This document shows, piece after piece, positions 16,703 to 18,893 of a stretch of DNA of 64,000 bases. Position 1 is the first letter of the stretch; each line of letters begins with the position of its first letter. The position numbers and the translations under genes are program-made. Origin of the DNA: Klebsiella phage Magnus; sequence record NC_049462.1; one strand, written 5' to 3'. The notes under the pieces are model-generated. The model did not search any database. It was not told the origin of the DNA and saw only the letters and a list, made by a program, of their open reading frames with translations.

Positions 16703-18893
16703 AGTCGAATATGCCCCGGTCAAGACGGGGTTTAAAATTGAAGACGTCAAATTGCGTATGGACCAAACGTTCATGCGCAAACCGACTGTGCGTGCTCCTC
16801 GTGTTGAATTAGTCCTTACTGATGAGCAGGAAGAAGAATATGTCAAGTGTGCTATGGACGCGCACTACTTCGCGGCGAATTATTACAAGATCACCACGAT
16901 TGACCATGGTTTCATCTTATTTGACATGCACGATTATCAGAAGCAGTTGTTCCATGATTTCCAGGATCATCGATTCAATGCTGTTGTGCAGGCTCGTCAG
17001 TCTGGTAAATGTGTTCGGGGCGACTCTGAAGTTTATGTTTACGATACTCTCAGCCAGGAAGAGTTCTCTATCACCATAGAGGAGCTTCACAGCCGCTTCG
17101 AAGACGTTAACCATGCAGAGCCGTTGAATACCATTGGCAAACACAATAAATTCGTAGATAGCCGCTTCGGCAAACGATACTTTGTACAGTCCGATAGTGG
17201 TTGGGTTCCGGTAATTGCTGCACACAAGACAAAAGAATACGCCGAGTATGTGGTCAAGACTGAAAGTGGCCGGACGATTCATGTCGCAGACGAACATCTA
17301 TTCTTTAATGAATATAATCGTGAGGTGTTCGCCAAAGATCTGGAAGCCGGGGATGCCATCATGACCCAGGATGGCCTTGAATGTATTTCTGAAATTTGGG
17401 AAACCGGTGAATCCCATCACATGTTTGACCTCCAGGTGAAATCATCTGAGCAGCGTTATTACACCAATGGGTTCCTGAGCCATAATACGACAGTGGTGGC
17501 GGCATTCCTTCTCTGGTATGCGATGTTCAACTCTGACAAAGAGATTGCGGTTCTGGCGAACAAAGAGAAACAGGCAATTGAAATCCTGGATCGTATTCGT
17601 AAAGCATACCAGGATATGCCATTCTTCGTTCAGCAAGGTTGTGAGAAGTTCGGTTCGACTCTGATTGAATTCGAGAACGGTTCGAAGATATTCGCATACG
17701 CGACTTCTTCGGACTCCATCCGTGGTCGTTCTGTATCTCTACTGTATGTTGACGAAGTCGCGTTCATTGAAAACGACTTTGAATTTTGGGAATCAACTTT
17801 CCCGGCGATCGCCCAGGCAGAGACTTCGAAGTGTATCCTCACCAGTACTCCCAAAGGTCAGCGCGGGCTGTTTTACGACATCGTCACGAAGGCGAACCCA
17901 GAACATCCTCAATACAACGACTTCAATCTTACGGAAGTTCCTTGGTACAGGGTTCCGGCGTACACCAAAGACCCGAATTGGGAATCCAAACAACGTGCCA
18001 AACTTGGCGACGCTCGTTTCGATCAGGAATTCGGTATCAAGTTCCGTGGTTCTGTCGGTTCATTAATACCGTCGAAATGTCTAGACAAGATGACATCCAA
18101 GTTGTATCAGGAGCCGAATGAGTTCACCAAAATCTACAAACCCTTTGACAAAACCAGAACATATTTTGGTATTGCGGATACAGGCAAAGGGGTTGAGGGG
18201 GACTACTCTGTGCTGACCATATTGGACATCACGGAATATCCTCATACGATTGCAGCCAAATATCGGAACAACACGATACCGCCAATGATGTATGCATACA
18301 CGATTGCCGATATGTGTACTCAATACGGTGAATGCCCTGTGCTTGTAGAGACTAACAATGATGTTGGTGGTCAGGTGATCACAATCCTGTATCAAGAAAT
18401 TGAATATCCGGAAATCGTGTTTACATCAACGGACAATAAAGGTACTGGTAAGAAGATCGGCGGGCGTCGTCCTGAACCAGGGATCAACACCAACAAGAAA
18501 GTTCGCTCTATCGGTTGTGCTAACCTGAAAGCACTTATCGAAAGAGAGATGTTGGTAATCGAAGACCAGGATACAATTGATGAACTCAGTACGTTCGTGT
18601 TTACTGGAACCCGCTATGAGGCCGATCAGGGTTGTCACGACGACTGCGTTATGCCACTTGTTCTCTATTCATGGGCTGTAAAACAGGAATGGTTCAGTGA
18701 CCTGACTGATACCAGCATTTCGCGAGATATGCGCGGACGTATGAATGCGATGGAGCAACACCAAGTCCTCCCGTTTGGGGGCAAATTTACTGGTGATACC
18801 CCTCATGAAGTCCAGCATATGCCGGGCTTCGGGGGTGTGAATGTATTTGATGAACGTTCTGGGATGTCAATGGAAGAGTGGTTCAAGAACTGA
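16683..18893 (+). CDS. 17: terminase large subunit gp17 (ATPase/nuclease), interrupted by a mini-intein
   Basis: Both exteins align with T4 gp17. '[30 protein letters not shown]' and '[26 protein letters not shown]...[10 protein letters not shown]' correspond to T4 'VYFAETYCAITHIDYG...' and '[26 protein letters not shown]...IYIDECAFI'. Start taken at MANPK (16683); the ORF track opens at 16638. Confidence 0.85.
   Translation: [736 protein letters not shown]
17010..17486 (+). other. mini-intein (159 aa, Hint domain only, no homing-endonuclease domain) in the TerL P-loop between Lys and Thr of GK|T
   Basis: The sequence '[14 protein letters not shown]...TIHVADEH...[10 protein letters not shown]...[16 protein letters not shown]' has N-terminal Cys1, a block-B TxxH-like motif, a C-terminal HN and Thr at +1. 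Removing residues 125-283 restores '[10 protein letters not shown]', which matches T4 '[10 protein letters not shown]'. Confidence 0.75.

Follow-up and report, generated by a model that had tools for sequence, protein, structure and literature searches.

Introduction

The gap between the lysine and the threonine of a P-loop is regarded as the 'classic' P-loop intein site (Kelley et al. 2016, PMC5050341), and inteins of the mycobacteriophage large terminase subunit (TerL) have been shown to splice, splicing being argued to be necessary for the active site (PMC5050341). For atypically split TerL inteins, a fractured-gene arrangement is known, in which a free-standing endonuclease is encoded between the two intein halves (PMC11766414). 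In 2013, the announcements of the Salmonella phages Maynard and Marshall described a large terminase interrupted by an intein (PMC3868846, PMC3853055), and the announcement of Klebsiella phage Magnus, which likened the genome to those of other Ackermannviridae, reported that its large terminase gene carries an intein element (PMC6763660). The latter element is the subject of this work. It was analysed in a stretch of 64,000 nucleotides (nt) of the Magnus record NC_049462.1, termed the window in the following; coordinates are counted from its first nucleotide.

The TerL intein as such is not new, since it is annotated and published for sister phages and also published for Magnus itself. GenBank record MH688040 (Salmonella phage Mooltan) holds an 'intein-containing terminase large subunit precursor' with a mat_peptide 'intein' on the homologous 477 nt, and the RefSeq 'intein' peptides of Maynard and Marshall (YP_008772116.1) comprise 159 amino acids (aa) with 84% identity to the window intein. 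A preliminary description of the DNA, made from its letters only, had implied novelty, which does not hold in view of the GenBank and RefSeq entries and the genome announcements of 2013-2019.

Boundaries and identity of the intein

The insert of 159 aa (18.5 kDa) encoded at 17010..17486 (+) is read here as a class-1, cis-splicing mini-intein without endonuclease domain, located in the Walker-A P-loop of TerL; a probability of roughly 0.93 is assigned to this reading. At the N-terminal junction, the codons CAG TCT GGT AAA (QSGK) extend to 17009 and are followed by TGT (Cys) at 17010, and at the C-terminal junction CAT AAT (His-Asn) extends to 17486 and is followed by ACG (Thr) at 17487-17489. 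Both exteins and the intein are encoded by one unbroken open reading frame (ORF; 16683..18893), and the intein is thus not naturally split. The G+C content amounts to 46.1% for the intein, 46.7% for the exteins and 46.1% for the entire window.

In NCBIfam searches with the intein alone, TIGR01445 (intein_Nterm) was matched with 27.0 bits, exceeding its cutoff of 24.5, and Pfam yielded PF14890 (Intein_splicing) at E = 2.7e-8 and 34.2 bits, a match that is also precomputed for many orthologues. In the same Pfam and NCBIfam searches, no LAGLIDADG, HNH or other endonuclease domain was matched by the 159 aa. Using phmmer against the PDB, the gp41-1 intein was the top sequence match among solved structures, followed by the PabCDC21-1 and VidaL inteins. 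An AlphaFold2 model computed with 27 aligned homologues (mean predicted local distance difference test, pLDDT, 95.2; predicted template modelling score, pTM, 0.87) was largely composed of beta-strands, plus two short helices at residues 23-29 and 36-43. All of the 50 PDB matches listed by Foldseek for this model were inteins or related Hint-fold domains (bacterial intein-like, BIL, and Hedgehog), including VidaL (E = 2e-11), Mtu RecA, gp41-1 and DnaB. Mini-inteins of 128-172 residues were aligned over the whole length of the model, only the two-helix segment (23-43) being left over. Chance resemblance is excluded because the PF14890 E-value, the TIGR01445 score above its cutoff and the Foldseek E-value of 2e-11 to solved inteins all point the same way.

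Empty sites were found by protein alignment in Vibrio phage D494, Ralstonia phage RSP15 and gp17 of the T4-like phage RB3, all of which possess a contiguous RQxGK-TT (the RSP15 junction reads ARQMGK-TTIVAGFILW); the intein-free metagenomic alleles P0015 and P0016 are contiguous at this position as well. At the DNA level, intein-bearing and intein-free terL genes differ by a clean block of 477 nt. Scanning the 64-kb window with a family-specific local hidden Markov model gave no second intein copy. The preliminary description, which had placed a Hint-only mini-intein without homing-endonuclease domain between the Walker-A Lys and Thr, was therefore borne out by profiles, predicted fold and intein-free orthologues: its coordinates were exact to the base (477 nt, 159 aa, in frame), the insert is precisely missing from the intein-free gp17 orthologues, and the spliced junction is collinear with RB3 gp17, so that excision restores a canonical P-loop as had been claimed.

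The TerL precursor gene

The frame of the terminase large subunit (gp17-like) precursor ends at 18893 (+) and starts, by direct reading of the sequence, either with TTG at 16638 or with ATG at 16683. The latter is preceded by GAGGGTGAGGA, and the same start is annotated in TerL orthologues including that of Mooltan. From this ATG, the gene (16683..18893, +; ORF list and Pfam) encodes a precursor of 736 aa plus stop (84.6 kDa), from which the spliced TerL would be released as a protein of 577 aa (66.2 kDa); the size of ~590 aa given in the preliminary description was slightly too high. By translation and by alignment with D494, RSP15 and RB3 gp17, the N-extein comprises 109 aa (16683..17009, +), ending with the Walker-A residues RQSGK (codons 16995..17009), and the C-extein comprises 468 aa (17487..18890, +), its first residue serving both as the Walker-A Thr and as the presumed splice nucleophile Thr+1.

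TerL was matched by Terminase_6N (E = 4.5e-17) and, slightly below the cutoff of 22.6, by Terminase_6C (21.7 bits); it shows the Terminase_6 architecture of an ATPase with Walker A and a C-terminal RNaseH-like nuclease, and once the intein is conceptually removed, TerLs of the gp17 type can be aligned with it over the entire length. The nucleotide identity of terL to Klebsiella Ackermannviridae such as FKP10, May, Menlow and 0507-KN2-1 is 95-97%; the carrier is a Taipeivirus-like (Vi1-like) Klebsiella phage of the Ackermannviridae. The start of terL is overlapped by the gene of the small terminase subunit (terS, gp16-like; 16010..16702, +), assigned from the ORF list and from synteny with annotated relatives.

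Catalytic residues, selection and proposed splicing

Conservation was assessed on 28 mini-intein alleles inserted at the same position between Lys and Thr (GK/T site), with identities down to ~31%. Invariant in all 28 were C1, K47, G64, T74, A93, D94, H96, T119, G122, M138, D140, V143, T152, L156, S157, H158 and N159. This set includes Cys1, the block A nucleophile (17010..17012, +), A93, D94 and H96 of block B (HVADEHLFF; 17280..17306, +), which aligns with CSEEHLF of gp41-1, and, within blocks F and G (HHMFDLQV...; 17415..17486, +), Asp140, the penultimate His158 and the terminal Asn159. The +1 residue is Thr in every listed intein-bearing allele. Cys1, the block F Asp, the His-Asn end, Thr+1, the HINT fold, the profile matches and the precise absence from orthologues are together the features of a class-1 intein.

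Between genera of the Ackermannviridae, synonymous sites were saturated (proportion of synonymous differences, pS, 0.7-0.8), and the nonsynonymous proportion (pN) was 0.09-0.23 for the intein and 0.08-0.16 for the C-extein. The sole unsaturated pair, Gloob and Kamild, gave a ratio of nonsynonymous to synonymous substitution rates (dN/dS) of 0.044 for the intein and 0.036 for the C-extein. By these values, the intein is under purifying selection similar to that on the exteins, and it is thus to be regarded as maintained; the term 'degenerate', offered in the preliminary description, is at odds with this and with the catalytic residues that are invariant in 28 alleles. Maintenance is also expected, because a failure of splicing would inactivate the essential gene terL. 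We infer that the window intein splices, since its catalytic residues are conserved, its coding sequence is under purifying selection and more than 270 isolates that carry it are viable.

Several points weigh against this reading. Block B is ADxH and not TxxH family-wide, the His being kept and the Thr replaced by Ala. The block F His of many relatives (DHRYY) is Gln in the clade of the window (EQRYY). As a nucleophile, the Thr at position +1 is inferior to Cys or Ser. The 34.2 bits for PF14890 are marginally under the gathering cutoff of 35.8, and the argument for splicing is drawn from conservation and phage viability. The last two points would also suit a rival reading in which mature TerL keeps the insert, be it a lineage-specific insertion of the ordinary kind or a Hint-like domain (BIL type) that does not splice. 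Such a retained domain would have to coexist with the full set of splice-junction residues (Cys1, His-Asn, Thr+1) on an intein-like HINT fold and with the precise absence of the insert from orthologues, and 18 kDa between the K and the T of the P-loop are hard to square with nucleotide binding; its probability is considered negligible or nearly so.

For the splicing intein, the following pathway is proposed after the established class-1 mechanism. TerL would be translated as the 84.6-kDa precursor, with the 18.5-kDa HINT domain lodged between Lys and Thr of Walker A. Cys1 would undergo an N-S acyl shift to a thioester, which would be attacked by the hydroxyl group of Thr+1 to give a branched intermediate; cyclisation of Asn159, helped by His158, would then release the intein, and an O-N shift would yield the 66.2-kDa TerL with an intact GKT P-loop. 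Before splicing, the precursor should be inactive for ATP-driven packaging, an expectation that we hold strongly in view of what these two Walker-A residues do in gp17-type ATPases and of the size of the folded domain that interrupts the nucleotide-binding loop.

That the intein occupies the catalytic P-loop of an ATPase which is essential, and that it has been retained under purifying selection across a whole phage family, could also be seen as signs of a conditional switch, in which splicing would sense redox state, temperature, ATP/DNA or the state of assembly and thereby time the activation of the terminase late in infection; a regulatory role of P-loop inteins has been discussed (PMC5050341). 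Any intein whose host gene is essential should, however, be under purifying selection, and the existence of intein-free close relatives (see below) makes the intein dispensable for the lifestyle. The sequence offers no sensor-like feature: a conserved disulfide trap is not present, because the only other cysteine, Cys125, is not conserved. A switch of this kind is accordingly judged very unlikely.

Distribution and intein-free alleles

With the intein as tblastn query, matches were obtained in 319 phage records, 277 of them at an identity of at least 60%; the latter belong to Kuttervirus, Agtrevirus, Limestonevirus, Taipeivirus, Miltonvirus and others, and their number is close to that of the records with a close TerL orthologue (about 271-282). 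To the alleles of other Klebsiella Ackermannviridae, the window intein is 98-99% identical. Most Klebsiella phage records, that of 0507-KN2-1 included, do not mark the intein explicitly, and in many of them the product is named just 'terminase large subunit' or 'hypothetical protein'. A junction-spanning query for intein-free close relatives in culture found none among the 30 listed top matches, all of which were hit in two pieces 477 nt apart. The protein homologue search returned only 2 proteins for the intein query, and the full precursor was used instead.

Intein-free TerLs were obtained from metagenomes, namely P0015 (576 aa, 85% identity), P0016 (77%), P0017 (76%), P0018 (74%) and P0019 (76%); their terL genes lie in syntenic Ackermannviridae-like contigs with gp13 through gp23. 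The preliminary description had raised the possibility of a fixed intein, which agrees largely with the cultured enterobacterial Ackermannviridae (277 records) and fails for these metagenomic alleles at 74-85% TerL identity. In a rough neighbor-joining tree of the exteins, drawn without support values, intein-free alleles were interleaved with intein-bearing ones, so that at least two events of gain or loss are required.

Exchange of intein alleles is indicated by two phages of one genus, Kuttervirus. Mooltan and GG32 are 98.9% identical in the C-extein and 78.6% in the intein (aa), with synonymous differences (pS) of 0.44 and 0.78, respectively. Towards the centre of the intein (which spans 6001..6477 of the locus), their nucleotide identity is as low as 58-68%, whereas the 180 nt directly 3' of it are 98-99% identical. 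On these sequence comparisons, the pattern suggests that recombination has replaced the intein allele, and not that the intein drifts faster; that few genomes and simple Nei-Gojobori counts underlie this inference speaks against leaning on it heavily.

Within cultured enterobacterial Ackermannviridae, the intein would be inherited together with terL, its ability to splice being preserved because the gene is essential, and an allele would probably be replaced or lost on occasion when the flanking sequences, which are highly conserved, undergo homologous recombination. Two observations, the much deeper divergence of intein alleles than of exteins within one genus and the interleaving of intein-free alleles, would fit an endonuclease-less intein that still moves among Ackermannviridae; free-standing endonucleases of the packaging module might cut the conserved P-loop-coding site, the intein hitch-hiking on the repair and protecting the site. 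Conditional splicing that gates packaging is the alternative. This combined proposal is considered very unlikely.

Endonuclease genes in the neighbourhood

Since the window intein has no endonuclease, it cannot home alone. A free-standing GIY-YIG homing-endonuclease gene (21251..21706, +; Pfam GIY-YIG, E = 7e-10) is located between the tail sheath and tail tube genes, 3.8 kb past the 3' end of the intein. Its ORF scored 48 bits with TIGR01453, under the cutoff of that model, and the protein is 100% identical to the 'GIY-YIG endonuclease' of 0507-KN2-1. The same gene occupies the slot between sheath and tube in Mooltan and GG32, phiMAM1 has two endonuclease genes there, and Limestonevirus Kamild has a different one on the opposite strand. 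No endonuclease gene is found in this slot in the intein-bearing Agtrevirus Gloob, in the intein-free locus L012 or in Vibrio phage D494. At an identity of at least 60%, the GIY-YIG gene was present in about 197 phage records, compared with 277 for the intein; among the Dickeya-phage records, it was matched in only 2 and the intein in 19. By its domain, its intergenic position and its presence/absence polymorphism, the gene is a free-standing GIY-YIG endonuclease gene.

Between the sheath and GIY-YIG genes, a further ORF of 100 aa (20885..21187, +) without Pfam match was observed, which is not there in the annotation of Mooltan and GG32.

A second endonuclease gene, encoding 293 aa with NUMOD3, lies between terS and terL in GG32 (L007, 4806..5687) and Kamild (L009, 4809..5687); according to the ORF list, no homing-endonuclease gene is located between terS and terL in the window (~16683-16702). 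The 5' end of terL was observed to co-vary in the genomes with the NUMOD3 gene (N-extein start IMAYKKEIDWAP), and the N-exteins of GG32 and Kamild are 96% identical despite different subfamilies. Co-conversion with the NUMOD3 gene was considered as the source of the divergent intein allele and rejected: the tract of low identity between Mooltan and GG32 is centred on the intein, and the intervening N-extein is 87-91% identical. A simple link between NUMOD3 gene and intein was likewise dismissed on account of Klebsiella phage Bestiario, in which a homing-endonuclease gene is annotated under or beside the terL match and the intein is still 98.7% identical to that of the window.

These data bear on the idea of collaborative homing, according to which the intein would be kept mobile by a trans-acting free-standing endonuclease, either that encoded at 21251, as the preliminary description had suggested, or the NUMOD3 enzyme encoded between terS and terL in relatives. 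Free-standing endonuclease genes are indeed common in the packaging and tail module, in distant members of the family the intein is interrupted by a free-standing ORF resembling an endonuclease gene, and the intein alleles look exchanged within Kuttervirus and are patchily present on the extein tree. The GIY-YIG gene, however, is missing from the intein-bearing Gloob, replaced in Kamild, rarer than the intein overall and, with 2 versus 19 Dickeya-phage records, also within that group. Free-standing phage endonucleases such as those of the T4 seg and mob genes usually cut near their own gene, and ~3.8 kb lie between this gene and the intein. The terS-terL interval of the window has no endonuclease gene, the divergent Mooltan/GG32 tract is not contiguous with the upstream endonuclease gene, and where all co-infecting relatives carry the intein, no empty site is left. 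Collaborative homing is therefore deemed highly improbable; the GIY-YIG gene behaves as an independent, Seg-like selfish gene, and a link to the intein found no support.

Split and unusual relatives

At the GK/T site, Vibrio Ackermannviridae and numerous T4-like TerLs of marine origin likewise carry mini-inteins (150-181 aa). Among the 120 best TerL homologues, about 28 represent a C-terminal half that starts with a C-intein of ~121-129 aa (e.g. P0040, P0046, P0051, P0090-P0116); in these metagenomic proteins, a homologous intein at the GK/T site is split after ~37-45 residues. The split point of the family corresponds to a loop at residues ~30-46 of the window intein, the length of which differs between cis alleles and for which the model is least confident (pLDDT 88-90). 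In contig L015 (Logan DRR337541, 1666..4749), terS is followed by an ORF of 125 aa (N-extein plus 37-aa N-intein), a free-standing ORF of 339 aa with a weak REase_MTES_1575/Vsr-like C-terminus, and the C-intein with the C-extein and Thr+1.

In Delftia phage PhiW-14 (L006, NC_013697.1), TerL is encoded by two ORFs (1925..2392 and 2441..4198) that are split inside the homologous GK/T intein: the first comprises the N-extein and ~45 aa of N-intein, the second, after a gap of 48 nt, ~120 aa of C-intein and the C-extein. Only the second is annotated in the record. For this TerL, a frameshift is one possible explanation; the other is that a cultured phage naturally has an intein of the atypically split type.

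Inteins of ~440 aa at the GK/T site of distant TerLs were considered as endonuclease-containing ancestors. This was discarded, as they show no endonuclease Pfam match and the reading frame passes through a free-standing endonuclease-like ORF located in another frame. In contig L014 (ENA ERZ28593091, 3001..5952; P0085, similarly P0080, P0088 and P0119), the TerL frame stays open for ~300 low-complexity, junk-like codons in the intein loop, and the other frame encodes a homologue, 41% identical, of the 339-aa endonuclease-like ORF of L015. A contiguous intein of giant size, an overlap of two genes and an artefact of gene calling are all conceivable here. The portal gene of the same marine contig (8755 onward, T4 gp20-like), which adjoins the intein-containing TerL, has a Pfam Intein_splicing match nested in Portal_T4.

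A GIY-YIG domain nested in the P-loop intein (P0052, P0077 and the TerL of Vibrio phage VP-1) was also rejected, the GIY-YIG ORF being fused far downstream after 'FDQEYDC'. In P0052, P0077, P0078 (Vibrio phage VP-1 TerL) and P0118, the ATPase domain runs into a GIY-YIG ORF in place of the nuclease domain, and P0118 has this insertion without a P-loop intein. Such fusions suggest that, besides the P-loop intein, terL has been invaded by a group I intron or by the gene of a free-standing endonuclease. Two inteins were observed in the TerL homologue P0050 (838 aa, Logan), one at the GK/T P-loop site and one ending HN/C just upstream of the Walker-B-like LLYLDE.

Practical consequences

Beyond correct annotation, the finding matters little. 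The TerL precursor of this phage group should be annotated as intein-containing, and the 477-nt intein must be removed before TerL is expressed or terL is used as a phylogenetic marker. For protein engineering, the family may supply compact Thr+1 mini-inteins and atypically split relatives, although such inteins are already known.

Comparison with known inteins

The atypically split TerL inteins of fractured genes (GOS-TerL, AceL-TerL; PMC11766414) share the arrangement seen in the metagenomic homologues of the window intein, which itself is contiguous, appears from its sequence to splice in cis and has no inserted gene. As the GOS and AceL inteins are listed with Cys+1 and may therefore sit at another site, they are likened here by arrangement and not by sequence.

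The closest solved structures are those of the mini and split inteins gp41-1 and VidaL (PDB 6qaz, 6vgv), which, as the window intein, are compact HINT domains without endonuclease (Foldseek E = 2e-11 to 8e-9; template modelling score 0.76-0.84 on target length). They differ by a sequence identity of only 18-19%, by their other host proteins and by the extra two-helix segment that the window intein has between blocks A and B.

As with the mycobacteriophage TerL1-a P-loop inteins (PMC5050341), the host protein of the window intein is a large terminase, in which the invariant Walker-A Lys is set apart from the Thr that acts as nucleophile; the host protein there is a terminase_1, whereas that of the window is a T4-type terminase_6, and some TerL1-a inteins have active endonucleases. 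Closely related, too, are the TerL inteins of the Kuttervirus phages Maynard, Marshall and Mooltan, which agree with that of the window in gene, GK/T insertion point, length (159 aa, 477 nt) and offset from the start codon at an aa identity of 84%. The difference is allelic only, the window holding the Klebsiella-phage allele.

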